A DNA stretch of 64,000 nt from a virus, in IMG/VR virus record IMGVR_UViG_3300035703_000045, positions 1-64,000 of that record. One strand, 5' to 3'. The notes under the pieces were generated by a model. That model had not been told where the DNA came from, did no database searches, and was given only the letters and a program-made list of their open reading frames with translations. Positions 2,657 to 18,974 of the stretch are shown here, piece by piece; the first letter of the stretch is position 1, and each line of letters starts with the position of its first letter. Position numbers and translations under genes: made by a program.

Positions 2657-2827
2657 TCATTCTACTTCATCTTTACGAAGAGCACCGGCAAGGTGGGCAA
2701 CCAAAGAGATACCTGAAATCCATAAACCTATTGTTTGGGTGGTTCCACTAAGTGTAATTAGTACAAGAGCAGTACCTCCTAAGGTCCAAGCAAGGGAGGA
2801 GGTTTCGGATAGGAGTTTTTTAAACAT
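2657..2827 (-). CDS. Small membrane protein (56 aa)
   Basis: Read manually: MFKKLLSETSSLAWTLGGTALVLITLSGTTQTIGLWISGISLVAHLAGALRKDEVE; start overlaps the upstream stop (TGATG). Confidence 0.6.
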   Translation of the reverse strand: MFKKLLSETSSLAWTLGGTALVLITLSGTTQTIGLWISGISLVAHLAGALRKDEVE

Positions 2828-4023
2828 CATCGTTTCCTTGAAGTTACGGGGGCTGGAGTGGCAAATGAAGCGGCGGCGGCGGCAACAACCACACGACGTG
2901 CTCCTACGGATATGTTTGATCCGGTTGGTACATAAGTATCAAATTGTCCACCAAAGACGTTGATCTGGGATTCAAATTCTTGTTTTACGTCATCTGGGGC
3001 GTTGGTTAACGCTTCCGACAATGCCTCTGCTTGTTCACCCGTCAGTTCATCGGGGACAATAGAATCAATAAGTTCTACTACCTGATCATCAGATAGTTCA
3101 TTAAGTACTTCTTCGCTGAAGACAGCGGCAATTGATTCCTCGGTTAGTTCACTTACTTCTATAGATTCTACTAGGTCAGCAAGTTCTTCGCTAGATAGAT
3201 CTAAAATCTCTTCTTCAGAAATCTGTGGGCCATTGTCCACAGGTACAGTCGTCGGTATGGTCGTGCTGGTAGACGAACTGGTTGACTCCGGTATGGAGGT
3301 GCTCGTAGATGTTGAGGCGACCGTTGTTGTAGTAGACGTAGTAGGGGGAAGTGTCGGGGGCGTTGCAGGAGGGGCAATAGGGAGTGGTGCGGTCGTCGTA
3401 GTAGTTTCCACAGGGACAGTAGGTGTTACCGGGATAACAGATGTAACAGTCGGGGCCGCAGTGGTTGTCGTAGTCAACTCCACTGTAGTTGTTGTCTCCA
3501 CCACCGTAGTTGTAGTCGTTGTTGGTTCCGTTACAGGGACAGTCGTTTCGGGGACAGTGGTAGTAGTTGTCGTCGTCGGTTCCGTGGATGTTGTAGTTGA
3601 TACCCATGTAGTCGTAGTCTCCGGTACGGTGGTTGTTGGAGTAAGATCAGTTGTTAAGGTATATGACGAACCATACCATGCGTCAGGGTTTCCACAACAC
3701 ACTCCAGTACGCAGTCTATAGGTACCCGGTTGTACAGAAACCCTAAGATATGAGTCCAACCCAAAGTAATCATCATTTTGGGCTACTAAAGTATCTACAC
3801 CGCTACTTTCGTAACGGTAAAACCATAACATAGAGTCAATACCGTACTGCTGGGCGTACGTTCGCACCTCAAAGGTACTGGGTTCAGTAAACGCAAAGTA
3901 AAAATCCTGAGCACCAGTAACAAGGGTATCTGAAGCCTTGGCTGTACTTACGGGGAAAATTGATAAAACTAATAAAGACCACTTTGATATCTGTATGATA
4001 CTTCTCAGTAGTTTTTTAATCAA
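2827..4023 (-). CDS. Secreted/surface protein: PPC-like beta domain, long Thr/Pro linker, acidic helical domain
   Basis: Signal peptide ending AKA; IDSMLW...AQNDDYFGLDSYL...PGTYRL (PPC-like); mucin-like T/P tract. Confidence 0.65.
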   Translation of the reverse strand: MIKKLLRSIIQISKWSLLVLSIFPVSTAKASDTLVTGAQDFYFAFTEPSTFEVRTYAQQYGIDSMLWFYRYESSGVDTLVAQNDDYFGLDSYLRVSVQPGTYRLRTGVCCGNPDAWYGSSYTLTTDLTPTTTVPETTTTWVSTTTSTEPTTTTTTTVPETTVPVTEPTTTTTTVVETTTTVELTTTTTAAPTVTSVIPVTPTVPVETTTTTAPLPIAPPATPPTLPPTTSTTTTVASTSTSTSIPESTSSSTSTTIPTTVPVDNGPQISEEEILDLSSEELADLVESIEVSELTEESIAAVFSEEVLNELSDDQVVELIDSIVPDELTGEQAEALSEALTNAPDDVKQEFESQINVFGGQFDTYVPTGSNISVGARRVVVAAAAASFATPAPVTSRKR

Positions 4024-4157: not shown

Positions 4158-4173
4158 TAATACAGTATAACAG

Positions 4174-4247
4174 TACCGGGTACGGGAATTGAACCCGTCT
4201 ACGAGTGTATATAAGACACCTTGCGTCAACCAGACGCACCACCCGGT
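4174..4247 (-). tRNA. tRNA-Ile, anticodon UAU (no encoded CCA)
   Basis: Cloverleaf on the minus strand: ACCGGGT acceptor; TGCG/CGCA D-stem; GGTGT-CTTATAT-ACACT anticodon arm; ACGGG-TTCAATT-CCCGT T-arm; ACCCGGT-A. Confidence 0.9.
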
Positions 4248-4254: not shown

Positions 4255-4830
4255 TTATGCTCGGCAATGTATGGCGAATTGCCAATACCACTTGCCTACA
4301 ACAGGCCAGTTGATATTTGTTGATGGGTCTTCCCACCATTTAGAAGTCGCATTATTTGGAATGCGATCAAAGTAGTCTTCAATCTGTGTAAAGCCAAGTT
4401 TCTTTACTATTTCTTCAACACGTTGGTGATGACAGTTCCAATGGTGTGTTGCGCCATCCCACCATTGGTGCTCTCTGTCGGGTTGATAGTTGTGTTCTTG
4501 ATGCTCCATTGTAGAAAGAACCATTTCCCAAGGCTCTAGGCCGTCTTTCCAACGCTGAATAGTTTTATGCACATCAGGACCAACAATAAGTATGGGAGCA
4601 TTAGGTTTTGCCATTCGCTTCATGTCTTGAAGGAACGGAACAACTTTGTCCCAGTCAATGTGCTCAATCACATGTCCAAGGTAAATGGCATCAAAGTAAG
4701 AGTCTTCAAAAGGATATGGTTCATCAGGGGTTACTTGCACGTCGGGCTTTGTGTGCTCATCTACCCATACATCACAGTTAACCCAACCGTTTGCGTAATG
4801 TGTCCCGCACCCAGCGTTAAGTAGTTTCAT
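4255..4830 (-). CDS. Class I SAM-dependent methyltransferase (type 11-like)
   Basis: LNAGCG motif I, WVNCD, PFEDSYFDAIYLGHVIEH. Confidence 0.85.
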   Translation of the reverse strand: MKLLNAGCGTHYANGWVNCDVWVDEHTKPDVQVTPDEPYPFEDSYFDAIYLGHVIEHIDWDKVVPFLQDMKRMAKPNAPILIVGPDVHKTIQRWKDGLEPWEMVLSTMEHQEHNYQPDREHQWWDGATHHWNCHHQRVEEIVKKLGFTQIEDYFDRIPNNATSKWWEDPSTNINWPVVGKWYWQFAIHCRA

Positions 4831-5612
4831 CAGTCTTTACCGTAATACATTGTAAGATCTGTTTGCAAGGGAAAGTAGTAACCACCATTTGGTGATTTGA
4901 CCGCAGGAGGCATATCAGGGCGATGATTAATCCCAGAGTAGTGAGCGATGAGGGACCGCCGTTCCATCCCCGGTACGGTTGGCGCAGAACCACGGTGCAT
5001 GAGTCGCCCGTGCCAGATCAAGACATCACCACGGTTGGGAAGGTAGGAGACAACATTGTCACCTTCCTTCATGATTTTATCCTCAAAAATGGGAGTCAAG
5101 ATTCGCTCTGAGAACTTGGGCCAGCGATGGTCACGTTCTTCAGGTGACAGAGCCTGAAGAATGCGCTCTCGTGTTACTTGTCGCCATCTATGGGACTTTG
5201 GGACAAACTGAAACGGACCAGAATCTGGGTGAATCTTTCCTAGAGCAATCCATACTGCGGCGTAGTAATCGCCAACATGTGGAGGGTTCAGGTAAGAGTC
5301 TTGGTGCCAATCACGCTGAGTTGACCGCCATCCGGTCAAATTCAAATGAAGACCGGCAGGTTCTCCAATAAGTTTCTCCAACTGGTCTGCTAATGGTTTG
5401 TAAGTAAGAAGATCCAACAACTCTGGATGGCGTGTATAGGGAATAGGGTCAGGCCAACCCATTGGACGTTCTGCGTTTTCCCGTAACCAACATTCCTCAT
5501 ACTTGACCATTAGGTCTTCGGGAAAGAAATTGGAAAGAATAACAACACCGTCACTGTTCCAGTCTGCTGGAGACTTTTCGGGTGCTGGTACTGTTAGTTC
5601 TTCAAATGTCAT
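4830..5612 (-). CDS. Fe(II)/2-oxoglutarate dioxygenase, PhyH family
   Basis: WHQD, AVWIAL, GPFQFVPKSH, GDVLIWHGRLMHRGS...RRS. Confidence 0.88.
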   Translation of the reverse strand: MTFEELTVPAPEKSPADWNSDGVVILSNFFPEDLMVKYEECWLRENAERPMGWPDPIPYTRHPELLDLLTYKPLADQLEKLIGEPAGLHLNLTGWRSTQRDWHQDSYLNPPHVGDYYAAVWIALGKIHPDSGPFQFVPKSHRWRQVTRERILQALSPEERDHRWPKFSERILTPIFEDKIMKEGDNVVSYLPNRGDVLIWHGRLMHRGSAPTVPGMERRSLIAHYSGINHRPDMPPAVKSPNGGYYFPLQTDLTMYYGKD

Positions 5613-5833
5613 TACTTACGCCAAACTGATGGAGAGTGAGCCGCCTCAACGGCATCACGGTGGTCATTGTCTTCATACAACCGAATGACGTGGATACAAG
5701 GATCTCCCTCGTAATACTCATCCAGTTCTGCTTCTGACATGGGCAATCCGTCGTGTGTGTAGCACACAGCAGGACCGCACCAACCGTTGTTCATTCCTGT
5801 TTTTAACCATTCATTAAAGTTCATGAGTGCCAC
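5612..5833 (-). CDS. Hypothetical protein
   Basis: 73-aa ORF coupled to the dioxygenase start; GWCGPAVCYTHDGLP. Confidence 0.6.
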   Translation of the reverse strand: MALMNFNEWLKTGMNNGWCGPAVCYTHDGLPMSEAELDEYYEGDPCIHVIRLYEDNDHRDAVEAAHSPSVWRK

Positions 5834-5855
5834 TGTACCATCATTTAGATGACTG

Positions 5856-6119
5856 TCAAATCAAGTTACGGGCCTTTTGTTCCTCACGAATGTCGTAACG
5901 ACTTACGTTGTAATAAGACGGAGCATTGTCACGGAACAGGTCGTCATCAGGAACGTCTTGCAACGCCTGATTACTAATCTCATAAAGACGTTGGGACACA
6001 ACACTATGTGGGCTGATATCACTTTCAAGGTACAGCCCTCTAGGACCATACTTTTTACGATCATCAGGGTTTCTCCTAGTAGAGTCACCTATAACATATC
6101 CACGATGATTAATTGCCAT
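5856..6119 (-). CDS. Hypothetical protein
   Basis: ORF packed in the minus-strand array. Confidence 0.5.
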   Translation of the reverse strand: MAINHRGYVIGDSTRRNPDDRKKYGPRGLYLESDISPHSVVSQRLYEISNQALQDVPDDDLFRDNAPSYYNVSRYDIREEQKARNLI

Positions 6120-6127
6120 AATTTATC

Positions 6128-6541
6128 CTAACTAAAGCAGTTGCATCCAGCATTAAAATGTAAAGAACGCTTAGGTTCTTCACTTGGAACTATGACGTTT
6201 CCCTCATCATCTGTGCGTGAGTAAATGTTCTCGTACGCAGGATTCAGTGGATTGAAGTTCTTAGCGTTCCGTGCTCTGGATCGTGTCATATCACGAGCAT
6301 GGTTATCTAACGCCAACTCCTCTTTGGTCATCTTAGAACGACGGTCTTGAATACCCTTTTCAATATCTTGAGCAAAATGAAAGTATTGAAGTTTAAAAAG
6401 ACCGCCAACTTCAGGTCGTACATACCTACGGTCTATGTAGTATTTTTGACCATCACTAGCCTCGTAGTGATCGGTCATTTCTACTTCGCTCTCACGACCG
6501 TGTGGGTATGGGTAAGGAAGATCAATAGGTGGTTTAGGCAT
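6128..6541 (-). CDS. Hypothetical protein
   Basis: ORF packed in the minus-strand array. Confidence 0.55.
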   Translation of the reverse strand: MPKPPIDLPYPYPHGRESEVEMTDHYEASDGQKYYIDRRYVRPEVGGLFKLQYFHFAQDIEKGIQDRRSKMTKEELALDNHARDMTRSRARNAKNFNPLNPAYENIYSRTDDEGNVIVPSEEPKRSLHFNAGCNCFS

Positions 6542-6543
6542 AG

Positions 6544-8181
6544 TTATTTTACAATTCCGTGCTTTGCAATTATTTGATCAATTTTAGAACGAGTTGCTTC
6601 TGCATGCTCTTCTTTAAAACCTTTTGGTAATTCTGGAAGTTGAGCACCAGACTGACGAGCAAGACCGTAGGCTTTTGCGTACTCAATCTTTTTATCGTAC
6701 ACTAATTTGTCAATCCATTTAGAAATCTCTGGGTGTAGTTCCCCAGATTGGCTCATTCCTGCTATTTCATCACGTTTTGCTTTTTCAGCAGTATGCGCTT
6801 TCAATCTGTCACGAAGGTCTTCTCCTCGTGTGTCCTCATACTTAAACCTTGTTTTACCACCATGAGGATCTTTTACTACGGACATTCCACGTTTATTGAC
6901 ATACCGTTCTCGGGCAAGCACATGTTGATTTCGTGCTTGGCGTTCAATAGTGTGTTCAAACGGTACTTCTGTCCGTGCTCCAGCCAGTAACGCTTCACCA
7001 CGGGGAGACCTAGCAATAGGTGCTCCCGCTGGATTACCAAAGCGGTCAATATCTGGTGCAATGTCTGGGAATAGGGACTGTTGGATATGGTCCCCTTCAA
7101 CCGCTTTGATACGGTTTTGATATTCCGTTTCATGAGGAAGGTCAGTATGTCCCATTTCTTTTTGCAGTAGGTGGGTTGTCATACGATGTATGGCAGATGT
7201 GTCTCGTCTTGGGTTACGCTTACCCTCTAAATTAAGATCGTCCCTTAAAGTACCTGCTAAACGGGTTGCTTCAAGGATAAGGGAAGCAGGAACAACTTTT
7301 CCTGTTTGGTGTGAATAGTCAAAAGCCGTTTGATATGCCTGTGCCGCATCATCGCCACCAACACTTCTAAAAAAGTCAGGACTGTACATGGTATTAAAAT
7401 TACCTTTGCCCTGATACTTAGTACGATACCCCTCGGCAGATCCCTCGGTAATGGGGGTAGCGTTAAAGTGAATTGAGGGTGCTTCTAACTCACGGTAGCG
7501 ACCAGTATCAAAGTGTGCGTATCGGCTAAGGTTTTTACGACCAGATTTTCTAATGGCACTTCTGTCTGGGTTTGTAAATAAAACACCTATACCGCCGTCC
7601 ATAGATTTTGGTGCCTCTAGGTCTGGGGCATTCGCATCATTTTCCCAGATCCTTCTATGTACTTTATGTAATTCTAATTCTAATTGTGATTGGCTTAAGT
7701 CGTGTTGAAGAACGTGCGCTAATTCGTGAACCATGACGGCACGGCGGCTTTCCATAGGAAGGCTTGATTTGTAGGTGACCTCTCCACTTGTTATGTCGTG
7801 GGTGCCACCTACACCCTTAGTTAACGAACTAAAAAAGCCTTTTCCTGAATCAGATACAACAACTGACCCAGCACGTTGTAAATCAGTAACAGGCATATCT
7901 GACAGCCTTAACATGTTTACAACATCATTAGTTGGTTCTGAAAACGAACTACGTTTTCCACGACTCATATTTAAGTTATCGTGGAATAACTCACGAGACA
8001 TGGCCTTACCTAATTGATTTCTATACAAAGAGTTAAACCTATCTCCATATAGATAGTTTTCTTTGATAGTAGATATGCGGAAGTCTTTTTCTGCTTTATC
8101 TAAGTCAACGCCCGGAAGGGTCAATTGGTCAGGATTGTCACCGGGATTACGAGTAATTGAAAATTGTTTACTTAATTCCAT
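6544..8181 (-). CDS. Protein with zincin-like HExxH metallopeptidase motif
   Basis: AVMVHELAHVLQ with downstream TEGSAEGY; N-terminal LSKQF and NPDQLTL; internal QQSLF. Confidence 0.55.
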   Translation of the reverse strand: MELSKQFSITRNPGDNPDQLTLPGVDLDKAEKDFRISTIKENYLYGDRFNSLYRNQLGKAMSRELFHDNLNMSRGKRSSFSEPTNDVVNMLRLSDMPVTDLQRAGSVVVSDSGKGFFSSLTKGVGGTHDITSGEVTYKSSLPMESRRAVMVHELAHVLQHDLSQSQLELELHKVHRRIWENDANAPDLEAPKSMDGGIGVLFTNPDRSAIRKSGRKNLSRYAHFDTGRYRELEAPSIHFNATPITEGSAEGYRTKYQGKGNFNTMYSPDFFRSVGGDDAAQAYQTAFDYSHQTGKVVPASLILEATRLAGTLRDDLNLEGKRNPRRDTSAIHRMTTHLLQKEMGHTDLPHETEYQNRIKAVEGDHIQQSLFPDIAPDIDRFGNPAGAPIARSPRGEALLAGARTEVPFEHTIERQARNQHVLARERYVNKRGMSVVKDPHGGKTRFKYEDTRGEDLRDRLKAHTAEKAKRDEIAGMSQSGELHPEISKWIDKLVYDKKIEYAKAYGLARQSGAQLPELPKGFKEEHAEATRSKIDQIIAKHGIVK

Positions 8182-8218
8182 TACAATCCCTTACTAACCG
8201 AGGTACCTATAGGATACA

Positions 8219-8743
8219 TCATGAAAATGATGGATTATCCCCTAGACCTTCAAACAACCTTTGGTTCCAACCTTCTGGTCCTCTGAGGTCCATCTTTCCT
8301 TCCCTTGCATACACTAACTGCGCTCGTAAAGGATGGGAGAACCTAAAACTAGGTGCCATGAACTCATCGTCATTCTGAGGCTCATTTTGAAGGTTTAAAA
8401 GATGCTCAGGGGTTGCACGAGGACCATGAATGTTTTTGTCTACCATCCAATGACCCTCAGTCGGGGTAACCCTATAAACATACAAAGACTTTGGTAATCC
8501 ATTGCGACGTGGATAGTTAGCATGAGCCGCCCAAGAAATAGCGGTTCCAAGGTGACTAGTAGCATAGTTGAAGTTCTTACTCATATCCCATATAGGTTTT
8601 GAGGAACTTCTGTAGTCAATGTGTGTCAGATTTGGTTGATCAGTACCATGGTACAAATCACCAAACTGGTCTAGCGACACGGTGGTGTTGTTAGTGAGCC
8701 TTCCTTCTGGGGTAACTCCAAGGTAAAGTAGGGGATTTTTCAT
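8219..8743 (-). CDS. ADP-ribosyltransferase-like protein (Arr-like signature)
   Basis: LYHGT...FNYAT...AISWA...LYVYRVTPT...VDKN resembles the Arr pattern YHGT...YFT...VYxVEPTG...DPN. Confidence 0.55.
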   Translation of the reverse strand: MKNPLLYLGVTPEGRLTNNTTVSLDQFGDLYHGTDQPNLTHIDYRSSSKPIWDMSKNFNYATSHLGTAISWAAHANYPRRNGLPKSLYVYRVTPTEGHWMVDKNIHGPRATPEHLLNLQNEPQNDDEFMAPSFRFSHPLRAQLVYAREGKMDLRGPEGWNQRLFEGLGDNPSFS

Positions 8744-9280
8744 TTAGCGCACGTCCCCTAAGTTTGGAAGGTTATCAAAGGTTGTTGGAATAATTGGTCG
8801 CCTTCCCCGATAGTCGTACTCTCCGATAGTTCTAATGTCGTGTTTTGGATCAAAGCGGTCGTACACCAATGGTAGGTATATATCATGGCCTTGTTGCTCT
8901 AAATCAAAAGCCGCCGCAAAACGATGATGACCATTACCCATTTGGAAGTGACGAATACGGCTCATACTTGTTTGTTCTGGGGTCATATACGCCCGTGCTT
9001 TAGGACCGGGGGGCATAAGAACAATAGGTGTTTTAATTCCTTCTAACCGTACGCTATCAACCAGTCCAGAGCGATGTGCTTCTTCTAGTTTTGTTTTATG
9101 TAGTTTTGACGTAGCGTAGCGTTCAGGGGTAATTTCATCCCACTCAAGTTCATTTGAATCTAGGAAACCCCTAAGACGACCTAGTATTTCTGATGGTCGT
9201 GAAAATAACCTTAATTGGTCTGGGTTAGATCCGGGGTCACTACTTAATAGTTGGGGATTAATATGTTCAAATGCGCTCAT
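8744..9280 (-). CDS. ParB/Srx-like domain protein
   Basis: LVDSVRLEGIKTPIVL...GNGHHRFAAAFDL matches the ParB N-terminal GxxR motif. Confidence 0.7.
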   Translation of the reverse strand: MSAFEHINPQLLSSDPGSNPDQLRLFSRPSEILGRLRGFLDSNELEWDEITPERYATSKLHKTKLEEAHRSGLVDSVRLEGIKTPIVLMPPGPKARAYMTPEQTSMSRIRHFQMGNGHHRFAAAFDLEQQGHDIYLPLVYDRFDPKHDIRTIGEYDYRGRRPIIPTTFDNLPNLGDVR

Positions 9281-9286
9281 ACAGAC

Positions 9287-9730
9287 CTACTTAAATTGAG
9301 ACATATAGTCGTTGTACGTCTGGATATCCTCGTCCGTTACGCCTTCCTTACTCACCAGTAGTCGGGCAGGGAAGTTACCAACCACACGAGCACCACTGGC
9401 ATGGCGTGAGTCTGAAATTATGGCATGTCTTGATGAGGTGTCTCTTAGAAGGCGACCAGATGGTTCAACCACATGGATGAACCCTGAAGGAACTGTACTT
9501 TCATTTGCAGAGTCTTCAGGAGTCCATGCGTATTGTAGTGCCGTGATGGGGTGGGGTGTCATGTAAATACGATTGGGCTTATACCCTGTATTTGCCATAT
9601 CACGGGCTTTGATATGTTCTGGAGTACTGACCTTTAGAGCAGGAAGAACCGGCTCACCTACTGGGATACGAATTGGTGACCCGTGTAGCAAATATTTAAA
9701 CTGTGAACTAAGACTTCCTGATGCACTCAT
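9287..9730 (-). CDS. ADP-ribosyltransferase-like protein (Arr-like signature)
   Basis: LLHGS...PVGEPVLP...RIYMT...ALQYA...FIHVVEPSG. Confidence 0.6.
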   Translation of the reverse strand: MSASGSLSSQFKYLLHGSPIRIPVGEPVLPALKVSTPEHIKARDMANTGYKPNRIYMTPHPITALQYAWTPEDSANESTVPSGFIHVVEPSGRLLRDTSSRHAIISDSRHASGARVVGNFPARLLVSKEGVTDEDIQTYNDYMSQFK

Positions 9731-10209
9731 CCGTTATCTACTTTTTCCATACCAGCGTAACGAACTAGTCCATTTTTGACGGAATCTTTATGGAATATGT
9801 GAGAGATACTTCCGTAGTCTTCTACAGAGTTACGAAACTTAATTGCTGAAGTTGGGTTAACTAAAGAAACATCCGCTGGTTGTGTTTCCCACAATTCAGG
9901 TTGTTCACCACTTTTAAGTCCTAGTGGAGTATCACCTGATTGCATCATGTCGTCACCCCATAGTTCGGGGCGAACCATAGATACAGGAATGTCGTATTTA
10001 TGAATGTAATTTCTGCTAATTAACGACTTAGCCGCCGCTTCCGTACCAGCATAAATAAATCTGCCCTGTGGATTACTCTGAGTTAAGTGACCACTTTTTC
10101 TTATTTTCTGTGCATAGTCATCACTATCTTGCTCATGCACAGGTAGTGGACTATCAGAACTATGGAATACCCGAACGAACTGATCTCCAAGAGAGTTTTT
10201 AGCCGACAT
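9727..10209 (-). CDS. ADP-ribosyltransferase-like protein, paralog family A
   Basis: VFHSS...IYAGTEAAA...IHKYDIP...FRNSVEDYGSISH; clear paralog of the genes at 11602 and 12463. Confidence 0.55.
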   Translation of the reverse strand: MSAKNSLGDQFVRVFHSSDSPLPVHEQDSDDYAQKIRKSGHLTQSNPQGRFIYAGTEAAAKSLISRNYIHKYDIPVSMVRPELWGDDMMQSGDTPLGLKSGEQPELWETQPADVSLVNPTSAIKFRNSVEDYGSISHIFHKDSVKNGLVRYAGMEKVDNG

Positions 10210-10238
10210 CAGTCCCCCATAGACTGTAGTGCTACAAA

Positions 10239-10658
10239 TCAGTAGTTGTAGTCACTACGGTTGCGGATGGCCTCATTAAGGTCTTCTTTAGCCAGTGTGA
10301 CATTCTCACCCCGGTTCCGGGCGGCACGGTACCGATCAAGCATTGGCTGAGTATGGTACTCACTGATGTCATCATCATTTGTGACAGGAACCTTATCGCC
10401 ACCACCGGGGTAGTACGAGGGAAGCGAGTGCTTGCTGTGGAATTCTTCTACTGGGCCGTAGTCTGAAGGAGCAGGCATGTCATTCTCTTCGTACCAATCA
10501 TAATCCTCATGGAGACTCATTGCTGACTCGTTAAAGTAGTTAGCCAGAACACGAGAAAGACGTGGTAGGTCAGAACGACCAATATTCTTATTCATGTCGT
10601 GGGTTACCTTACCAGCGTGTAGGGGTCGGCCTCGGTGGTCGGATGCGGTCATATTCAA
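10239..10658 (-). CDS. Hypothetical protein
   Basis: AAGGAG RBS and TATTAT -10 upstream. Confidence 0.55.
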   Translation of the reverse strand: MNMTASDHRGRPLHAGKVTHDMNKNIGRSDLPRLSRVLANYFNESAMSLHEDYDWYEENDMPAPSDYGPVEEFHSKHSLPSYYPGGGDKVPVTNDDDISEYHTQPMLDRYRAARNRGENVTLAKEDLNEAIRNRSDYNY

Positions 10659-10700
10659 CTCCTTAATATTGAGTGCTCGGTCTATAATACACCAAATAAT

Positions 10701-11510
10701 TTAGTTGGGAAAATAACCTCTTGGATCAAGTTTAGCCCAAGTACCAGTTTCAAGATCTACAACATCATGAAAAGTCGTCTTGGGATTAACTGTATGACTA
10801 ACACCTAAAAATTGACCACTTAAATGATGTGGTTTATTTTGTCTGATACTAGATATTTCAGATTCTGGCATGTTAGTAATGAGTTCAGACAGACGTTCAG
10901 AAAGTTCAGGATTTGCGTTTCTTTTTCTATTGAATTCTCCAAAACGTGAATAAATATCGTCTCGTGCATGTAAAAATTTAAAATGTGAATCAGTATCGTG
11001 TGGATCCCAATGACTACTAAGAAGGTCTAGATTAAGTACCCGAGAATCTTTACTTGGTTCAAATACTGCCTTATCAATAGAACCATGCATTGCCTTATCA
11101 CCACTTGCGACTGTGCCAGAAAACGGTTTACGATGAGCGGCTTCATATACAAGGCTTCCATATGCGTCATCTTGTATGGCTTTTCGTAGTCCAACAGTCA
11201 TATTAGTGGGAAATACTGCCGCTTGAAGGATCGCTGATGGGTGAGAAAGCCCTTCTTCCCTCATATCAAAGCGTAGTGTGTCATCGGAGAATATATTTTT
11301 GTGTTTAGTTGGATCAATATTATATGATAATAGATCTTTTCCAATCATATGTGATATTTCTGATCCGGGCCTAATAAGGCCAGTACCCATATCAATACCA
11401 GCATTAAAATGAGACAACCTACGAATATGAAATTCAGGATCCCTTAAATTACCTAATCCTGATCTAAAACGAATATCAGATAAATTAGAGTTTCTAAGTA
11501 ATTCAGGCAT
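10701..11510 (-). CDS. Hypothetical protein carrying an HLSGQF tag
   Basis: 269-aa ORF with GGAGG RBS. Confidence 0.65.
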   Translation of the reverse strand: MPELLRNSNLSDIRFRSGLGNLRDPEFHIRRLSHFNAGIDMGTGLIRPGSEISHMIGKDLLSYNIDPTKHKNIFSDDTLRFDMREEGLSHPSAILQAAVFPTNMTVGLRKAIQDDAYGSLVYEAAHRKPFSGTVASGDKAMHGSIDKAVFEPSKDSRVLNLDLLSSHWDPHDTDSHFKFLHARDDIYSRFGEFNRKRNANPELSERLSELITNMPESEISSIRQNKPHHLSGQFLGVSHTVNPKTTFHDVVDLETGTWAKLDPRGYFPN

Positions 11511-11601
11511 ACAATCCTCCGAGTATATTCATTTTACTTTAAAATTGTGGTCATATACTACAAGATCTTTATTAGACGGCGATTTTTTGCACTTATACCT
11601 A

Positions 11602-12048
11602 TTAGTTGTCCCACAATGTGGGCTGGTACCTCCCGCCAGACATCACAGTTATAGCATTTGCAATGGCTTGACCGTCTTCTCCACGAAGTTCTTGGAATTG
11701 GGGACCAAGGTGCTTCACATGCTTACCTACAAAGTGGCTAGGGATAACATAGGAGGTAGAACCAACGTCCTCTACGGCGTTTGTGTACGGATAAATACGA
11801 TTAGTTTTGTGCTCAGGAACAATTTTTCCGCCCCTGTTGTATGGGTCTTCCCAATCCTTTACCCGTGAAGTAGGAGCAGTGTCGGGTATTTCATAGGCGT
11901 GTACCGTGGCGATGCCCCCAGACTCCTCCGCTTCATCTAAACGATCCTTAGCGGCCTTACGAGTACCGGCATGAAAGGTCTCTTGATCGTACTCATGGGG
12001 TGGTTTGGACTCAAATGTCCCGTGGTAGACGATCTTAGATGCGCTCAT
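11602..12048 (-). CDS. ADP-ribosyltransferase-like protein, paralog family A
   Basis: VYHGT...FHAGTRKAAKDR...VHAYEIP...YTNAVEDVGSTSYV; resembles polyvalent-protein ART domains. Confidence 0.6.
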   Translation of the reverse strand: MSASKIVYHGTFESKPPHEYDQETFHAGTRKAAKDRLDEAEESGGIATVHAYEIPDTAPTSRVKDWEDPYNRGGKIVPEHKTNRIYPYTNAVEDVGSTSYVIPSHFVGKHVKHLGPQFQELRGEDGQAIANAITVMSGGRYQPTLWDN

Positions 12049-12051
12049 GGC

Positions 12052-12435
12052 TCAATCCTTGAACTGGTCGCCTAGATGTGCTCGTTTTTCCATCTCATTC
12101 ATACGCCAAGAACGTAATTGACGCTCATAATCAGTTGCATGGCTGTGGCGAGGACCAAAAGCGGCAGGAGTGATCTCATGGTCTCCCCGTCCCAGTGCCA
12201 TTGGGCCAGAGCCACGGGGGTCATCATGCAACCAACCTTCGGAAAATCCTAGATTTATGAATGGTCTAGGTCGTTCAATGCCTTCAACACCACCCACAAC
12301 CAATCCAGAGTCAGTTGGAGTCTCAAACCGATGGTGAGGAGTCTCTAATCTAAAGGAGCCAGAACGGATAGGAAGACCACATTCAGCACATGATGGCTGT
12401 ACTAACGTCGGATCTTCAATGGGGAAATCAGTCAT
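12052..12435 (-). CDS. Hypothetical protein with CxxC motif and C-terminal HLGDQF
   Basis: CAECGLPI...WLH...H; leaderless-type promoter upstream. Confidence 0.6.
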   Translation of the reverse strand: MTDFPIEDPTLVQPSCAECGLPIRSGSFRLETPHHRFETPTDSGLVVGGVEGIERPRPFINLGFSEGWLHDDPRGSGPMALGRGDHEITPAAFGPRHSHATDYERQLRSWRMNEMEKRAHLGDQFKD

Positions 12436-12448
12436 GGCTCAATAATAC
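12433..12448 (-). promoter_or_regulatory. Leaderless promoter GTATTATTGAGCC-ATG, copy 1
   Basis: -10 TATTAT lies 6 nt before the ATG; identical 16-mer at 12895-12910. Confidence 0.55.
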
Positions 12449-12462
12449 ATTAGATTGTAAGG

Positions 12463-12897
12463 TCAGGATAAAGACATACCCATATACTTGATTTTATTAT
12501 CATTTATGTCTTTTTTATGCATAATGTAAGAAATACTGCCCTTATCTTCAACTTGGTTACGATACTGAAGTACTTCTCCGGGTTTAACGTCACGAGGTCT
12601 TACTGGAACTGTTTCCCACAAAGTGGGTCCACTTTTATCGGCAAGTTCCATAACTATGCGTGAGTCTCGTTCTGAGTCCGGGTCATGATCATCATCAGCC
12701 CAGATTTCAGGACGAAGCATACTTACAGGGATTCGGTAATGATGAATAACATCTCTACCTGACTCCATCATACGGTCAATTGCGGCTTGTTCAGTACCAG
12801 CAAAAACATGAGGATGACCATATCGTACATGGGGAGCATTGTTATCCATTGATGCGTGGTACACATCAATAAACTGTGGTCCGTCAGGTATTGGCAT
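12463..12897 (-). CDS. ADP-ribosyltransferase-like protein, paralog family A
   Basis: VYHAS...VFAGTEQAAIDR...IHHYRIP...YRNQVEDKGSISYI. Confidence 0.55.
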   Translation of the reverse strand: MPIPDGPQFIDVYHASMDNNAPHVRYGHPHVFAGTEQAAIDRMMESGRDVIHHYRIPVSMLRPEIWADDDHDPDSERDSRIVMELADKSGPTLWETVPVRPRDVKPGEVLQYRNQVEDKGSISYIMHKKDINDNKIKYMGMSLS

Positions 12898-12910
12898 GGC
12901 TCAATAATAC
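12895..12910 (-). promoter_or_regulatory. Leaderless promoter GTATTATTGAGCC-ATG, copy 2
   Basis: Identical to 12433-12448; heads the minus-strand array. Confidence 0.55.
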
Positions 12911-13021
12911 CAGAATAGGGCTACATTTGACTTTTGGCAGGTTACCCCCATTGCAGAATAGGGCTATTGCGTAGTTTTGGTGTTATTGGGTGGTTGGCCC
13001 TGCACCATTCGCCGTGAAGCC

Positions 13022-13717
13022 TGTGGATTAACCATGGGGGGTGTGGATATCCCTGTGGATAATGCCGTTATCCACAGCCCTATCTGTGGATAAGTGGTGT
13101 AGTTATCCACATCCCTGTGGGCAATTCTGTGGATAAGTGGCTGTCAAGGGGCAATTGTGTGACATTTGTCATGTGGATAACCCCATTTCCTGTGGATAAC
13201 TATGTGGATAACCCCGAAACCCTGTGTATAACCCATTTCAGCCTGTGGATAAAGATACCCCAAGGGGTACCGTACGCTGGGGAAATGCAAAGTGGGCTTG
13301 TTCATTGACTTTCTGCACGATTTCAGTGCATTTGCCCTGCTCAGAGGCACATTTCGTTGTCCACAGCGATCTGTGGAAATCGCCGTAGAGCCGTTTGGAG
13401 GCTCTGGAGGGGGTGCAGTGCCCCGAAACGCTGGAGGCTGTCAGAGGGCGAAATAGGGGGCAATGAGAGGAAAGTGTCATAACGTGGCATCAGCCCTAGA
13501 AATGGGGCTATGGGTGAGACAAATGTCACAAGTGGGGGGTAGGTGCAGGTATTTGCACTATGCAATCAATCCCCCATCAACTATTTGTACTCTGCAATAG
13601 TTGCACCCTACAAGTATCCCCGTCGCATCCCCCCTATGACCCCCTCTGATATCCCATTCATATATATGTCCAATTTCCGATCCAGTTATCCACAGGGGGC
13701 GCAGAAAGTTATCCACA
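13022..13717. promoter_or_regulatory. DnaA-box cluster (oriC-like or datA-like locus)
   Basis: Perfect TTATCCACA/TGTGGATAA starting at 13054, 13068, 13085, 13103, 13128, 13172, 13191, 13203, 13244, 13686, 13709; TGTGTATAA at 13223; TTGTCCACA at 13357; near-matches at 13022, 13042, 13116, 13372. Confidence 0.88.
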
Positions 13718-14018
13718 GACCCCGAATCGTCCCTACAGTGGCAGTGTGAGGTTCGCAGGGGTCACCATCGTCGGTGGCATCTCAGCATGCGTCCCTACCT
13801 CACGGTGATTCCCACCCTGCAAGGTCGCCACGCTCTCCGATGTCGCAAGTTTGACAGTGCGAGCACGACCGATGCCCCAGCGGTGCGCTGGCACGGATGG
13901 GAAGTCACCCCGTGATTACGAAATGCTCCGAACTGGGGGGATCAGAAGTTGGGCGGTCTAGCACCCGTCACCCCTGAATGCATAGCCAGTCCACCGGAGT
14001 ACGCATGCCAATTCCAAC

Positions 14019-14056
14019 GGTCTCAGGTCTCAGGTCTCACAAGGCGCAAGGTCTCA
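14019..14056 (+). repeat. GGTCTCA heptamer x4 (three tandem, one spaced)
   Basis: Copies at 14019, 14026, 14033 and 14050. Confidence 0.8.
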
Positions 14057-14119
14057 TCGTCCGTCCCCCATGTATGTGGGGGGCGATGGTCGCAGGGGTT
14101 CGCCCCGTAAAGCGACACC

Positions 14120-14175
14120 GTTGGGAGATGCCCCACTAGGGGGCGATTCATGAGGTGCGATCCCTCCTCCCAACA
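14120..14175 (+). ncRNA. tRNA-like mini-element 1 (acceptor stem plus T-arm)
   Basis: GTTGGGAG...GAGG-TGCGATC-CCTC-CTCCCAAC-A with an internal GCCCC/GGGGC hairpin. Confidence 0.4.
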
Positions 14176-14195
14176 CTGCTGACATCCCGTCAGCC

Positions 14196-14212
14196 TGCGT
14201 TCCCGTAACGCA
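14196..14212. repeat. Intergenic palindrome, copy 1 (TGCGTTCCCGTAACGCA, one mismatch)
   Basis: Matches consensus TGCGTTAC-S-GTAACGCA; lies just upstream of the GAAAGGAC RBS. Confidence 0.8.
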
Positions 14213-14231
14213 CCAACCCGAAAGGACAGCA

Positions 14232-14873
14232 ATGAACACCACCGACAACCGAGGGGTTCTCACCCCCATCCACACCGCCTGCGAGATCGCCGAGTCGGCT
14301 CTCGCTGATGCCAACGAGGTGCTCGCCTGCCTGCCAGTGATCATGGATGCCAGCGAGGGTGTCAGCAATCGTGACATCGCCTACTGGGGCGTGAGCGAGG
14401 GCATGGTTCGCCGGTACAAGGTGCTCGCCACCATCATCGCCTTGGGCGACGACGAGGGTGCCCAGTGCGATCTCTTCACGGCTCGCAAGGTCGTGAACGC
14501 CACGTTCAAGGTCAAGGGCATCACCACCGAGATGATGAACGAGGTCATCGCTGAGAGCGACACCGTGTCGCAGGCGGTCGCTGGTCTTCAGGCTCTCGCC
14601 TTGGCTCCGGTCATGACCGAGGTGGACGAGGACGAGACGGACGGCGACGGCGACGGCGACGAGGATCAGACCCCCGACCCCAAGGACGACCTCGCCAAGA
14701 AGGTCACCAACTGGCTCACGGCTGGTCAGGGTTCGCTTCGCAAGGTCGTGGAGGCGCAGGGCAACGGGTTCGTCCTGACCGATGAGCAGGTCGTCGCTCT
14801 CACCACCCTGACCGACCTCGTCGCTCAGATCAACGCCAACGCCAACGCTCAGAAGACGGTCGTCGCCGTCTGA
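14232..14873 (+). CDS. Hypothetical protein, first gene of the plus-strand region
   Basis: GAAAGGAC RBS, strong GC3 bias, acidic DGDGD linker. Confidence 0.8.
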   Translation: MNTTDNRGVLTPIHTACEIAESALADANEVLACLPVIMDASEGVSNRDIAYWGVSEGMVRRYKVLATIIALGDDEGAQCDLFTARKVVNATFKVKGITTEMMNEVIAESDTVSQAVAGLQALALAPVMTEVDEDETDGDGDGDEDQTPDPKDDLAKKVTNWLTAGQGSLRKVVEAQGNGFVLTDEQVVALTTLTDLVAQINANANAQKTVVAV

Positions 14874-14880
14874 TGACACC

Positions 14881-14948
14881 GCCAGTAGCAGTGGGGATGC
14901 CACGGGGCATCAGCAATCCCACGGGGGGTTCAACTCCCCCCACTGGCA
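14881..14948 (+). ncRNA. tRNA-like mini-element 2 (acceptor stem plus T-arm, no D-arm)
   Basis: GCCAGT...GTGGG-GATGCC-ACGG-GGCATC...CCCAC-G-GGGGG-TTCAACT-CCCCC-C-ACTGGC-A. Confidence 0.5.
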
Positions 14949-14998
14949 CTGCTGGACGAGTGCACGGGCAACTGTGCGCTCGTCTAGTATCAACACCG

Positions 14999-15015
14999 TG
15001 CGTTACCGTAACGCA
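14999..15015. repeat. Intergenic palindrome, copy 2
   Basis: TGCGTTACCGTAACGCA upstream of the RBS of the gene at 15035. Confidence 0.85.
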
Positions 15016-15034
15016 CCCGAATGAAAGGACAGCC

Positions 15035-15874
15035 ATGAACCAGCCCAGCGAGAAGCAGATCGGATTCATCCGGTCTCTCGTCAACGAGCGTCGTCAGACG
15101 CTCACCGACCTCAAGCCCGAGTGGCTCACCACTCCGACCACGACCCGTGAGGCGAGCGACATCATCTCCCGACTGATGGATCTGCCCCGTGACCCGAAGG
15201 CTCCGACCGCCGAAGATGCCGACCTCGCCACCGACATGGCAATCCTCAAGAACGGACTGGGCGAATTGTCGGGGCGTGACTTCCACTTCGCCTCGTCGCT
15301 CGTCAAGCAGTACGAAGAGCGTGGCACCCTGTCCGACCGCCAACGGGCGTTCATCCCCAAGTTGTTCAAGGCGATGGACGGTGCTGACAAGCCCGTGCCC
15401 ATGGGCATCCACCGTGCCAGCGACGGCACCATCGTCCTCGTCTACCTGACCAAGAACGGTCGTCAGGCTGGCAAGGTGCTGGACGAGGGCACCTTCATCT
15501 ACGCCAGCGGTGTCATCGCCCGTTTCAACCTGTCCGACGAGACGGTGATCTCGCAGGCGCAGGCTCAGGAGTTCGGGCGCACCCACGGCTTCTGCGTGGC
15601 ATGTGCCAAGCCCCTCACCGACGACCGCTCGCTCGCATCGGGCTACGGCGCAGTGTGCGCTGGCAAGTACGGGTGGCACTACTGCACCCGTGAAGAGGCG
15701 GTGGCGATCTTGGGTCGCCCCGTCGCCTGCCAGCACCAGTGGGAGTTGGTCAAGACGGACACCAACTACTACAACCCCCAATTGGGGACGGGGTCGTGGA
15801 CGGAGCACTACGAGTGCGCCAACTGCGACGAGTGCAAGACGGTCAACATCGTCAACAACCGCTCGGGCGACTGA
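15035..15874 (+). CDS. DUF6011-like zinc-binding protein
   Basis: GFCVACAKPLTDDRSLASGYGAVCA; N-terminal SEKQIGFIRSL; start moved to the ATG after GAAAGGAC. Confidence 0.7.
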   Translation: MNQPSEKQIGFIRSLVNERRQTLTDLKPEWLTTPTTTREASDIISRLMDLPRDPKAPTAEDADLATDMAILKNGLGELSGRDFHFASSLVKQYEERGTLSDRQRAFIPKLFKAMDGADKPVPMGIHRASDGTIVLVYLTKNGRQAGKVLDEGTFIYASGVIARFNLSDETVISQAQAQEFGRTHGFCVACAKPLTDDRSLASGYGAVCAGKYGWHYCTREEAVAILGRPVACQHQWELVKTDTNYYNPQLGTGSWTEHYECANCDECKTVNIVNNRSGD

Positions 15875-15935
15875 TCAGGGGGTGGTATCGGGCAATCTGA
15901 TATCCATCCCATATCCCATCCGACTGCTGGGGGGT

Positions 15936-15952
15936 TGCGTTACCGTAACGCA
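15936..15952. repeat. Intergenic palindrome, copy 3
   Basis: TGCGTTACCGTAACGCA flanked by a G-run and a C-run. Confidence 0.85.
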
Positions 15953-16002
15953 CCCCCTAGCCTGACCCTTCCAACCAACCCAACCACCGAAAGGACACCA
16001 CC

Positions 16003-17568
16003 ATGTCGTTCATTGACGACTTCCTCAACGACCTCCAGCCCACCGCTGGACGACCCTCGCCCCAACCTGTGGGCGTGTCCAGCCTCACCGTCCCGACCCT
16101 GCACCTGCCCCTGATGGACTACCAGCAGGAGTCGGTGCAGTTCGCATTGACCCGTCGCAGTGCCTACCTCGCCCTTGACATGGGCTTGGGCAAGACGGCA
16201 GTCGCCATCGCCATCGCCACTGCTGTTGCCCAGCAGGAGCACCGTCAGGTGCTCATCGTGGTGCCCCCGTCGCTCCGTACCAACTGGGTGCGAGAGTTCG
16301 GGAAGTTCAGCCCCGACCTCAGCATCCACGTCTTTGACAAGTCGGCTCCCACGCCGACCATCAGGGTGCCTCGCATGGTCAACGGCTCCCCGTTGACGGT
16401 GGACGGCAAGAAGGTCATGGACGAGGTTCCCAACCCGAACCCTCCGACCCTCCCGACCAGCAACGTGCTCATCGTGGGCGACTCCACCGTGGAGGGCTGG
16501 GCGCACTGGTTGTCCACCTCTCCCCGTCCGGTCGGTGCGGTCATCGTTGATGAGGCGCATCGGATGAAGAATCCGAAGGCGTTGCGAACCAAGGCTCTCG
16601 CCCAACTCATCAAGTCCATGCCCAGCGACGGCGTGAGGATCATGATGTCGGGCACCCCTGCGCCCAACGGTCGTGCGTCGGAACTCGCCACCGCACTGGA
16701 ACTGGTGGACGGCTGGAGCACGGTCTCCAAGGGCACGTTCTGGCACTACTACTGCCCCCCTGCCAAGTTCGGTCGTGAGCATCTGCCCGAGCGTGTGCAG
16801 GAGTTGGGCGAGAAGTGCCGGAGCACGTTCATGCTCCGTCGCCTCCGTGGTGAGGTGCTGACCCTCCCGAACAAGGGACGCAGTGCCATCGCCGTGGAGG
16901 GCAAGGGCACCGCCGTGCGTAAGTACATCAGCGCAGAGGAAGACCTCATTGAATTCCTCAGCGGTGAGGGTCGCTCCACTGAGGGTGCCGGTCGTGCAGA
17001 AGCACTGGTGCGTCTCACCACTCTCCGTGCCCTCGCTGGTCAGGCGAAGGTGGACGGTGCGGTCACCCTCATCAAGGAGATGCTGGAGGACGACCCCTCG
17101 GGCATCCTCGTCATCGCAGAGCATCAGGCGGTCATGGACGCACTGGAGATGGCGTTCATCGGCAAGGCTGTCAGCATCCGTGGTGGCATGACCGACACGC
17201 AGAAGAGCGATGCCGTGGACATGTTCAACGGTGGTCACGCTCAGGTGCTCATCGGTCAGATCACCAGTGCAGGCGTGGGCTTCACCCTGCACGGTGGTGG
17301 TCGCAACCATCGGGTCGTCGTCGTGCAGTTGCCGTGGACTCCTGCTGAACTCCAGCAGGCAGAGGATCGCCTCCACCGCATCGGGCAGACGCACGATGTG
17401 GAGGTGACCATTGTGCTCACGCACATTGATGGCAAGTGGAGCATTGATGAGCGACTGTGGGGTCTCTTGGAGCAGAAGGCGTTCAGTGCCACCGCCATGA
17501 TCAACGGCGAGGGAGAGTTCCTCACGGACAGCGAAATCCGTGAGGGTCTGCTGGACACCTACCGCTGA
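16003..17568 (+). CDS. SNF2-family (SF2) helicase/translocase
   Basis: DMGLGKT, VVPPSLRTNW, DEAH, SGTP, QAEDRLHRIGQ. Confidence 0.92.
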   Translation: MSFIDDFLNDLQPTAGRPSPQPVGVSSLTVPTLHLPLMDYQQESVQFALTRRSAYLALDMGLGKTAVAIAIATAVAQQEHRQVLIVVPPSLRTNWVREFGKFSPDLSIHVFDKSAPTPTIRVPRMVNGSPLTVDGKKVMDEVPNPNPPTLPTSNVLIVGDSTVEGWAHWLSTSPRPVGAVIVDEAHRMKNPKALRTKALAQLIKSMPSDGVRIMMSGTPAPNGRASELATALELVDGWSTVSKGTFWHYYCPPAKFGREHLPERVQELGEKCRSTFMLRRLRGEVLTLPNKGRSAIAVEGKGTAVRKYISAEEDLIEFLSGEGRSTEGAGRAEALVRLTTLRALAGQAKVDGAVTLIKEMLEDDPSGILVIAEHQAVMDALEMAFIGKAVSIRGGMTDTQKSDAVDMFNGGHAQVLIGQITSAGVGFTLHGGGRNHRVVVVQLPWTPAELQQAEDRLHRIGQTHDVEVTIVLTHIDGKWSIDERLWGLLEQKAFSATAMINGEGEFLTDSEIREGLLDTYR

Positions 17569-17582
17569 CCCCACCCCGACCA

Positions 17583-17615
17583 CGGTGGGGTGCGTTACGG
17601 TAACGCACCCCACCG
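17583..17615. repeat. Intergenic palindrome, copy 4 (33-bp inverted repeat)
   Basis: CGGTGGGG-TGCGTTACGGTAACGCA-CCCCACCG. Confidence 0.9.
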
Positions 17616-17707
17616 ATATCCATATCAAAGGTTGCAATATCAGATTGCGACCCCTAGAATCCCAGTTACAAGTTCAGACCAACCCAACCACAAGAAAGGC
17701 AATCAAC

Positions 17708-18934: not shown

Positions 18935-18939
18935 CAGCC

Positions 18940-18974
18940 TGAGGTGGGTGCGTTACGGTAACGCACCCACCTCA
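18940..18974. repeat. Intergenic palindrome, copy 5 (35-bp inverted repeat)
   Basis: TGAGGTGGG-TGCGTTACGGTAACGCA-CCCACCTCA. Confidence 0.9.

Follow-up and report, generated by a model that had tools for sequence, protein, structure and literature searches.

Five predicted ADP-ribosyltransferase-fold proteins, three paralogs and an Arr-like pair, in a variable gene island of an uncultured myovirus

A minus-strand gene block of an uncultured phage was analysed, in which five small open reading frames (ORFs) resemble ADP-ribosyltransferases (ARTs). The source is a 93,044-bp IMG/VR virus record (IMGVR_UViG_3300035703_000045), 99% complete by CheckV, and the window, meaning the whole stretch of DNA that was analysed, is its first 64 kb (64,000 nucleotides). 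The five genes, here called A to E, fall within positions 8219–12897. A, B, C and E very likely belong to the ART superfamily and D probably does, and the five together are best explained, at a confidence somewhat above even, as stand-alone mono-ADP-ribosyltransferases with different acceptors, serving host takeover or counter-defence. A, B and C are old paralogs of an uncatalogued phage family, and E and D probably divergent members of an Arr-like radiation; as phage weapons, the five would be of a known kind but from families not yet catalogued. The five genes, with the evidence for each and the N-terminal leader that two of them carry, are as follows.

12463..12897, minus strand: C, ART-fold protein by its model, 144 aa, A/C subtype of the unnamed A2 family, first gene of the block (AlphaFold2 model, structure matches, 73-sequence alignment)
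11602..12048, minus strand: B, predicted member of the same ART-fold family, 148 aa, B subtype, without the full leader (B-type hidden Markov model (HMM) 2.2e-63, A/C-type HMM 1.2e-10)
9727..10209, minus strand: A, predicted member of the same ART-fold family, 160 aa, A/C subtype, leader MSAKNSLGDQF (36% identity to C)
9287..9730, minus strand: E, Arr-like ART-fold protein by its model, 147 aa, leader MSASGSLSSQF (AlphaFold2 model, Arr matches)
8219..8743, minus strand: D, putative distant Arr-like protein, 174 aa (iterated profiles, joint profile, ESM Atlas leads)

An original prediction, made from the letters of the window, had placed five ART-like genes of two families here, and both the coordinates and the minus strand of all five were borne out by the ORF list. 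The motifs that it named were likewise present: V[FY]H, [HFY]AGT..AA, H.Y.IP and [YF].N.VED.GS.S in A, B and C, and HG[TS], Y.T and [YH].V.P[TS] in D and E. Its claim that A, B and C are mutual paralogs held for A and C by BLAST (36% identity, E=2e-27), and for B, which was not detected by BLAST against A or C, by reciprocal HMMs and hhalign. An HMM from 62 B-type metagenomic homologs, containing no window sequence and no A/C-type sequence, scored C at 3.8e-14 and A at 2.4e-5 among 1308 ORFs (those of the window and 17 loci), the reciprocal A/C-type HMM scored B at 1.2e-10, and hhalign of the B-type against the A/C-type profile gave 98.4% probability (E=4.5e-15); judged by these comparisons, the paralogy is far beyond chance. 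At least 155 relatives of the family, each 130–180 aa long, were found in a collection of 5.8 billion proteins, all of them unnamed and none with a Pfam domain, and the B subtype is the commonest and most conserved form in metagenomes. Orthologs in other contigs have 65–67% identity to A, 75% to C and up to 94% to B, and several related contigs carry B-type and A/C-type copies side by side, so the duplications are old and not recent within this genome. No close relative of B was found in GTDB genomes, and the GenBank phage collection gave no DNA or protein match. In 73 aligned relatives, at about 30% identity to C, the invariant positions are H14, H23, G34, Y54, D68, N114, E117, S123 and G140 (C numbering), and the H, D, N, E and S residues among them point to an active site.

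For C, an AlphaFold2 model was produced from the 73-sequence alignment, with a predicted local distance difference test score (pLDDT) of 93.9 and a predicted template-modelling score (pTM) of 0.86. Searched with Foldseek against the PDB, this model matched Xre-RES and ParT first (probability 0.98, E 2e-3 to 4e-3), and later matches were diphtheria toxin, exotoxin A, cholix toxin, RhsP2 toxin, AcrIF11 and tankyrase. The model was also searched against 48,161 chains with VIA, a structure search independent of Foldseek, in a wide search and a second look with 50 matches listed for each. The wide search returned ParT at Z 6.9 (112 residues, 4.3 Å), VPA0770 at 6.7, diphtheria toxin at 6.3 (105 residues, 3.5 Å), RES at 6.3 and MbcT at 5.9, with ART-superfamily proteins making up most of the 50 matches listed; in the second look, ParT reached Z 7.2 and diphtheria toxin Z 6.5, and all 50 of the matches listed were ARTs. 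Tankyrases, Tpt1, the phage ART AcrIF11 and pseudo-ARTs were also among them. The alignment with diphtheria toxin spans the whole domain (C residues 6–144 against toxin residues 13–167); H14 of C ends strand 1, like H21 of the toxin, and the strand after it is formed by [HFY]-A-G-T and leads into a helix. Among the viral structures of BFVD, the nearest to C were uncharacterised proteins of uncultured phages (E=3e-9), and annotated PolyVal ARTs, N4-like vRNAP and DarT were found further down.

For E, with 13 close relatives, AlphaFold2 gave a model with a pLDDT of 80.2, and its best three Foldseek matches in the PDB were three Arr structures (probabilities 1.00, 0.98 and 0.97). The top VIA match was Arr (9iaf), at Z 7.7 with 25% identity over 96 aligned residues, followed by KptA at Z 6.6; the remaining matches were mostly other ARTs, including diphtheria-toxin homologs, an Rhs toxin and pseudo-ARTs. 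The strand positions of the motifs agree with the DSSP strings of the C and E models. The original prediction had proposed AlphaFold plus Foldseek as a check of the fold; run on C and E, it recognised the split beta-sheet core of ARTs in both. At the level of these models, the split beta-sheet ART fold is thus shown for C and E, and A and B follow by homology to C. The case for C lies in the near-uniform membership of its matches in the ART superfamily, in whole-domain alignments and in the fitting motif positions.

The site residues of E correspond closely to those of Arr, with H16-G-S, Y56 and V88-E-P-S-G92-x4-D97 in E set against H19-G-T, Y49 and V75-E-P-x-G79-x4-D84 in Arr, whose catalytic D84 stands in a VEP.G....DPN context (PMC6092378, PMC8492726). 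D carries H32-G-T, Y60, V92-T-P94 and D102-K-N104 (W..D102.N), with a loop one residue longer, and no significant similarity of D to E was found by BLAST or by shallow profiles in hhalign; the same comparisons of D and of E with A, B and C were also not significant. Only two close relatives of D were found in the 5.8-billion collection and none in IMG/VR, and 7 matches at E<=1e-3 were obtained among 1.84 billion representatives, four of which are distant proteins of 161–195 aa sharing QFG.LYHGT, Y.TT..A..YA, VY.V.P and W..D.[DN]..GP. One further match to this family stood apart: residues 12–64 of the D-family profile, the segment containing the QFG.LYHGT region, were matched in 36 separate stretches (E=4e-15) of P0139, a 5820-aa protein on a 4.8-Mb NCBI contig, which may be a giant multi-ART protein of polyvalent type or a low-complexity artefact.

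D was connected to Arr through a related contig. An ORF directly upstream of a B-type gene there (L017:7576-7938) clears the gathering score of the Pfam Arr-ms model (25.6 against 25 bits, E=1.5e-5), and a profile grown from this ORF in the 1308-ORF set first gathered about 10 "mini-Arr" proteins of 80–125 aa, then E-type proteins at about 1e-7, E at 7.8e-4 and D at 6.3e-5, and two rounds after D also A/C-type proteins at 2.8e-4 and 5.5e-5. A joint Arr-like profile that includes D and E (A6), run against all PDB sequences, matched Arr (2HW2/9IAF) at E=1.7e-5, with further matches to Tpt1 (E=0.014), diphtheria toxin and Arr-2, all of them ARTs and nothing else; the single-family profiles (A2, A3, A4 and A5) found no ART among PDB sequences, and only the merged A6 did. 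Between the A2 profile (A, B and C) and A6, the match was marginal (35.6% probability, E=3.9e-4). In the ESM Atlas, used for leads only, D and E lay near Arr-ms clusters by features (0.92–0.93) and by structure (TM 0.53–0.58), and D also lay beside a DarT cluster. The Arr-like reading of the original prediction thus stands for E, by model and profile, and for D draws on iterated profiles and Atlas leads; since iterated profiles can drift, D was placed in the ART superfamily with good confidence, below that given to the other four. By their site residues, D and E would both resemble Arr in how the NAD site works.

Curated families were searched with all five proteins. In Pfam nothing was found at E<=1, including ART-PolyVal (PF18760), Arr-ms (PF12120) and RES, and the Arr-ms model had no match at E<=10 in the whole genome; against the E family, two of 14 members reached E=0.076. 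NCBIfam and PADLOC gave nothing relevant for any of the five. In PHROGs, the sole match was that of E to phrog_17296 (E=2.5e-5), a family without a function, and none of the five matched Alt or Mod. The five are thus not members of PF12120, PF18760, RES or the Alt/Mod families as these are defined, and constitute new families in the ART superfamily, within the assignments given above. No further ART-like gene was found elsewhere in the 93-kb genome.

The strand-1 His is present in all five proteins, with HG[ST], HAS or HSS invariant in all three family alignments, and the aromatic residue or His on the next core strand lies in [HFY]-A-G-T in A, B and C and in Y-x-T in D and E. For the acidic residue, the register was taken from VIA alignment ranges, and by these E148-Y-I of diphtheria toxin appears to correspond to S123-Y-I of C, an invariant Ser; E117/D118 of C, the acid of the VED motif, lies five to six residues upstream of S123 in the preceding loop. 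D68 of C, also invariant, stands in W-x-D-P and follows the beta-hairpin that bears H.Y.I[PS], which would be the position of Arr D84, and the marginal profile alignment between A2 and A6 sets the D68 and D84 elements in the same register. The original prediction had assigned the proteins to the H-Y-E clade of ARTs. Its His strand and aromatic strand were found as described, and its late-acid Glu is doubtful, the canonical spot apparently being occupied by the invariant Ser; the configuration of A, B and C looks like H-(H/F/Y)-D, with D68 the better acid candidate.

In the preferred explanation, each protein most likely binds NAD+ in a split beta-sheet cleft, which would be formed by the strand-1 His, the aromatic residue or His on the next core strand, and an acid after the following beta-hairpin. 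The candidate acids are D68 in C, D97 in E and D102 in D, equivalent to D84 of Arr, with presumed catalytic roles, and A, B and C have the invariant N..ED.GS.S element in addition. Each of the enzymes would put a single ADP-ribose on an acceptor of its own, with NAD use and a diversity of targets both predicted. Different acceptors are implied by the divergent loops and C-terminal parts, and they need not be proteins, since the nearest relatives, Arr, KptA, DarT and ParT, have as their substrates a small molecule, RNA, DNA and a metabolic enzyme. The role would be host takeover or counter-defence, with timing and leader-based delivery as conjectural parts of the scheme. Several ARTs in one phage are established, with three in T4 and at least ten in Bacillus phage G (PMC9503650). 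Phage ARTs serve at the front line of host takeover and counter-defence, yet few have known targets; the island would add an abundant unnamed ART family and an Arr-like radiation with altered substrate sites, through which new targets of ADP-ribosylation might be found, whether proteins, nucleic acids or small molecules, and it has a bearing on the origin and native role of the rifampin-resistance enzyme Arr.

Compared with Arr itself (PF12120; 2HW2, 9IAF, 9IBA), D and E are alike in their small single-domain size (about 140–175 aa) and share the HG[TS] that closes strand 1, the Tyr in Y-x-T, the helix A..YA, [YH]-x-V-[ET]-P and an Asp shortly after it (PMC6092378, PMC8492726). They differ from Arr in failing the Pfam model, and the rifampin-binding loop [LV]TK[KR]P and the helix M[RK][DE]xL are absent from both; the C-terminal parts remain unaligned, with residues 10–129 of the E model matched to chain residues 12–120, stopping before the C-terminal helix of Arr. 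Since D and E lie in the island of a lytic-looking phage and not in a bacterial chromosome or integron, rifamycin is an unlikely substrate. AcrIF11 (6KYF), an anti-CRISPR of phages and plasmids, provides an example of a stand-alone ART of about 130 aa acting in enzymatic counter-defence (PMC12421852), and was found among the matches of C and E (Z 5.0 and 3.4), although it has no sequence relationship to them and its structural rank is below those of ParT, diphtheria toxin and Arr.

T4 offers a precedent for the arrangement, Alt, ModA and ModB being likewise several ARTs in one myovirus for host takeover. Alt is much larger than any of the five proteins. The T4 enzymes belong to the R-S-E clade (PMC5512222), whereas the five proteins here have a strand-1 His and no Alt/Mod match in Pfam or PHROGs. 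Tox-ART-HYD2/ART-PolyVal (PF18760) is apparently alike in its H-Y-D configuration, and alike in the association of ART with metallopeptidase and ParB, there in phage early effectors (PMC5512222). In contrast to polyvalent proteins with MPTase and DdrB-ParB domains, the domains here are in separate ORFs (ARTs of 144–174 aa) and not in a giant polypeptide, and PF18760 matched a single ORF of the related contigs (L021:9166-9585, E=0.13).

Several results weigh against transferase activity or against the assignments behind it. The structural Z scores are middling (6–8), and the search tool cautions that values of this size may arise from a commonplace arrangement; the nearest solved folds to the C model include NAD-degrading toxins, which are not transferases; and with the canonical Glu position apparently a Ser in A, B and C, by the register from VIA ranges, the chemistry may differ from that of classic transferases. 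The link of D was made by iterated profiles in a small database, where drift is possible. No curated HMM in Pfam, NCBIfam or PADLOC recognises any of the five.

Two alternatives are both unlikely. A, B and C could be NAD+ consumers, that is, NADases or NAD+ phosphorylases of the RES/MbcT/NatT kind, altering the host NAD+ pool or a signal derived from ADP-ribose. In favour of this, the best structural matches of C are ParT, VPA0770, Xre-RES, MbcT and NatT, and the apparent Ser at the canonical Glu spot, inferred from VIA ranges, would suit the R-E-S triad (MbcT residues from PMC6436930). Compared with the ParT/RES toxins (6D0H, 6GW6/9R35, 6FKG, 8QNL), which were matched over about 110 residues at Z 5.9–7.2, A, B and C are alike in size and in their minimal ART core; they differ in having no R-E-S triad, no match to any Pfam family at E<=1 (RES included), no Xre/ParS partner, with no adjacent Xre-type antitoxin recognisable, and an identity of 6–11%. 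RES toxins are partnered by an Xre antitoxin and have an Arg-Glu-Ser triad, and their strand-1 Arg is essential (PMC6436930); strand 1 of A, B and C carries a His instead of the Arg essential in MbcT (PMC6436930). A phage NADase would also be counter-intuitive, NAD+ depletion being a host anti-phage defence. About equally unlikely, or slightly more so, some or all of the five could have the ART fold without catalysis and serve to bind or sponge up immune signals derived from NAD, or could use the fold as a scaffold for stoichiometric inhibition of host proteins. There are known pseudo-ART domains, with PARP13 and the TASOR pseudo-PARP among the structure matches, the canonical Glu is absent, and the proteins are small and the family fast-evolving; against this, the HG[ST] His occurs in all five and is invariant in 73 A/B/C, 14 E and 7 D relatives, together with invariant acidic or polar residues, which suits an NAD site, though a ligand-binding pocket would be conserved too.

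Less probable again is that the ARTs are toxins of phage toxin-antitoxin or exclusion modules, with X1 (the gene after C) and X3 (next to A) as antidotes. ParT, RES, MbcT, NatT and DarT are toxin-antitoxin toxins of this fold, the ART genes alternate with unrelated small genes, and in L009 and L014, X3 is again found close to A/C-type genes. The partners vary, however, with B-type genes found beside many different neighbours, and E and A overlap without a partner; no antitoxin-like DNA-binding or macrodomain protein was found in Pfam and PHROG scans, and the genome is lytic-looking, with no integrase among the ORFs scanned. For D and E, a role as KptA/Tpt1-like RNA 2'-phosphotransferases that restore tRNAs cut by host defences would be suggested by KptA as second VIA match of E (Z 6.6) and Tpt1 as second in the profile search (E=0.014). 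An Arg-His pair is part of the KptA catalytic site, and no Arg precedes the strand-1 His in either protein (LHGS in E, YHGT in D). KptA is encoded by phages (PMC9503650), but no RNA ligase or 2H partner was found among the ORFs scanned against Pfam and PHROGs, which cover part of the genome, and Arr outranked KptA in every search, leaving this role very improbable.

The five genes belong to a minus-strand block that runs from 12897 to about 5856 at 42–43% GC, in the order of transcription C, X1, B, X2, X3, A, E, the ParB-like protein, D, the HExxH protein and two small ORFs; the ORFs of E and A overlap one another (9287–9730 and 9727–10209). On the 5' side of the block is a 1.3-kb intergenic stretch, followed by a plus-strand module at 62% GC. 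The other features are as follows.

12052..12435, minus strand: X1, island gene, 127 aa, CxxC near the N-terminus (ORF without a family match)
10701..11510, minus strand: X2, island gene, 269 aa (ORF without a family or PDB match)
10239..10658, minus strand: X3, island gene, about 137 aa (homologs in L009, L014 and L015, E 1e-10 to 1e-11)
8744..9280, minus strand: putative ParB/Srx-like protein, 178 aa, GNGHHR motif, leader MSAFEHINPQL (weak ParB-type profile matches)
6544..8181, minus strand: putative zincin-like metallopeptidase, 545 aa, HELAH motif (sub-threshold Pfam matches)
13022..13717, no strand assigned: cluster of DnaA boxes in the divergent intergenic stretch directly preceding the block (11 perfect TTATCCACA copies)

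For the protein at 8744–9280, the family profile matched the N-domains of Noc, ParB and Spo0J and SerK in the PDB at E 0.012–0.2, and two of seven members matched Pfam ParB_N (best 5.4e-4), giving weak but consistent support for a ParB/Srx-like assignment; the family is present in 12 of the 14 loci, often in two or three copies. The HExxH protein (6544–8181) had sub-threshold Pfam matches to Peptidase_M78 (E=1.6e-3) and DUF6782 (E=3.9e-3), and neither it nor X2 had a PDB sequence match. X1 and X2 had no family match in Pfam or PHROGs, X1 also none in NCBIfam or PADLOC, and X3 recurs by ART and ParB-like genes in related contigs. The original prediction had named ParB-like and zincin neighbours, of which the former gained the support just described, and the latter rests on its HExxH motif and the sub-threshold matches. 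It had further described the genes as a split-up polyvalent set, which is a reasonable analogy because the polyvalent proteins of phages have ART, metallopeptidase and ParB as hub domains and their ARTs have an H-Y-D site (PMC5512222), although the genes here are separate and Pfam polyvalent models were unmatched.

The A2 family was traced in 13 non-redundant related IMG/VR contigs (14 loci when the window is counted), and in all 13 the variable stretch that contains it is flanked by two conserved gene sets, of which one corresponds to window genes 1–706, 714–1169, 1169–1912 and 2827–4023 and the other includes a conserved gene of about 516 aa. The variable stretch holds shifting mixes of A2-type ARTs, E-type genes, mini-Arr, ParB-like genes, X3 and other small genes, and the block at 8219–12897 is part of this hypervariable accessory island. 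Larger tandem runs of small island genes were seen in L011 (9291–15472), L007 (1802–4512), L016 (5210–7927) and L018 (4946–7066), mostly tagged with the leader (at least 10 genes in L011), and including mini-Arr proteins of 80–125 aa and as many as three copies of the ParB-like gene.

A, E and the ParB-like protein start with M-S-A-x-x-x-[LI]-x-x-Q-[FL]. Starts of the form M-[STAP]-A-x-[DENSKHG]-x-[LIVM] were found in 35 of 346 called genes in the 14 loci, against a mean of 0.6 and a maximum of 3 for shuffled N-termini, and 39 genes of 17 BLAST-defined families encode, in the first 45 residues, the fuller leader, in which Q or L comes after this motif. Its 12-residue consensus, M-A-A-H-E-S-L-N-x-x-Q-F, heads unrelated small proteins and was seen in the window and in loci L005, L007, L009–L018 and L021. 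In the window, the full leader is carried by 8744–9280, 9287–9730 and 9727–10209 and a partial form, [LI]-x-x-Q-F, by C, D and the HExxH protein (6544–8181), and B-type ARTs are without it. The conserved residues of the leader use all synonymous codons and the DNA upstream is unconserved, which indicates that selection acts on the peptide; on the same grounds, the leader was rejected as an RNA element.

The leader may be an addressing or packaging tag. A T4-type cleavable capsid-targeting sequence was considered and was not supported: no prohead protease was recognisable beside the genes for portal, coiled-coil scaffold and major head protein, which lie together, and the leader does not resemble a known T4 example of such a sequence. 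The island is also not adjacent to the head genes. The leader may be comparable to the capsid-targeting signal at the N-terminus of T4 Alt (PMC5512222, PMC3012670). A bolder and rather doubtful proposal is that the five ARTs could be cargo of an undescribed leader-based addressing system, most plausibly for capsid loading and injection, with Arr a domesticated branch of a larger phage-conflict radiation. If this proposal were true, the island would be a leader-defined arsenal of injected enzymes (Arr-like proteins, A/C-type ARTs, ParB-like proteins and at least 12 other families), and if the leader is an addressing tag, the set of injected or co-regulated effectors of the phage could be read from sequence.

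The phage is contractile-tailed (a myovirus), with genes for baseplate wedge, tail sheath, major head protein, portal and tail fibres, and also encodes a family-A DNA polymerase and helicases; no integrase was found among the ORFs scanned, and it looks lytic. A scan of positions 5500–14400 for promoter and terminator consensus sequences found fewer sites than in shuffled sequence and so gives nothing on the timing of expression. Perfect DnaA boxes (TTATCCACA, n=11, in both orientations) all fall in 13054–13717, with none elsewhere in the window, and there are also four one-mismatch copies; from its sequence and its place between the ART block and a replication-like plus-strand module, this region may be a phage origin or a DnaA-controlled promoter region. 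Across the plus-strand module (14000–21500), GC rises from about 43% to 62%, and its contents are a DUF6011 protein (14873–15874), a phrog_62 helicase (16003–17568), an ATPase-like protein (17540–18934) and a 712-aa protein; by composition and content, it looks like a replication module gained from a high-GC source. A further helicase of phrog_62 lies at 50290–51837.

The first three genes of the block, C, X1 and B, have an identical, unusual ATTGAGCC immediately 5' of the ATG (12898–12912, 12436–12462 and 12049–12060), C and X1 also have TATTATTGAGCC in common directly before the ATG, and a classic Shine-Dalgarno sequence is absent from most genes of the block. A tRNA-Ile (anticodon TAT, 4173–4247) lies a short way downstream of the island, beside a class-I methyltransferase (4255–4830) and a PhyH-type 2OG-Fe(II) oxygenase (4830–5612).

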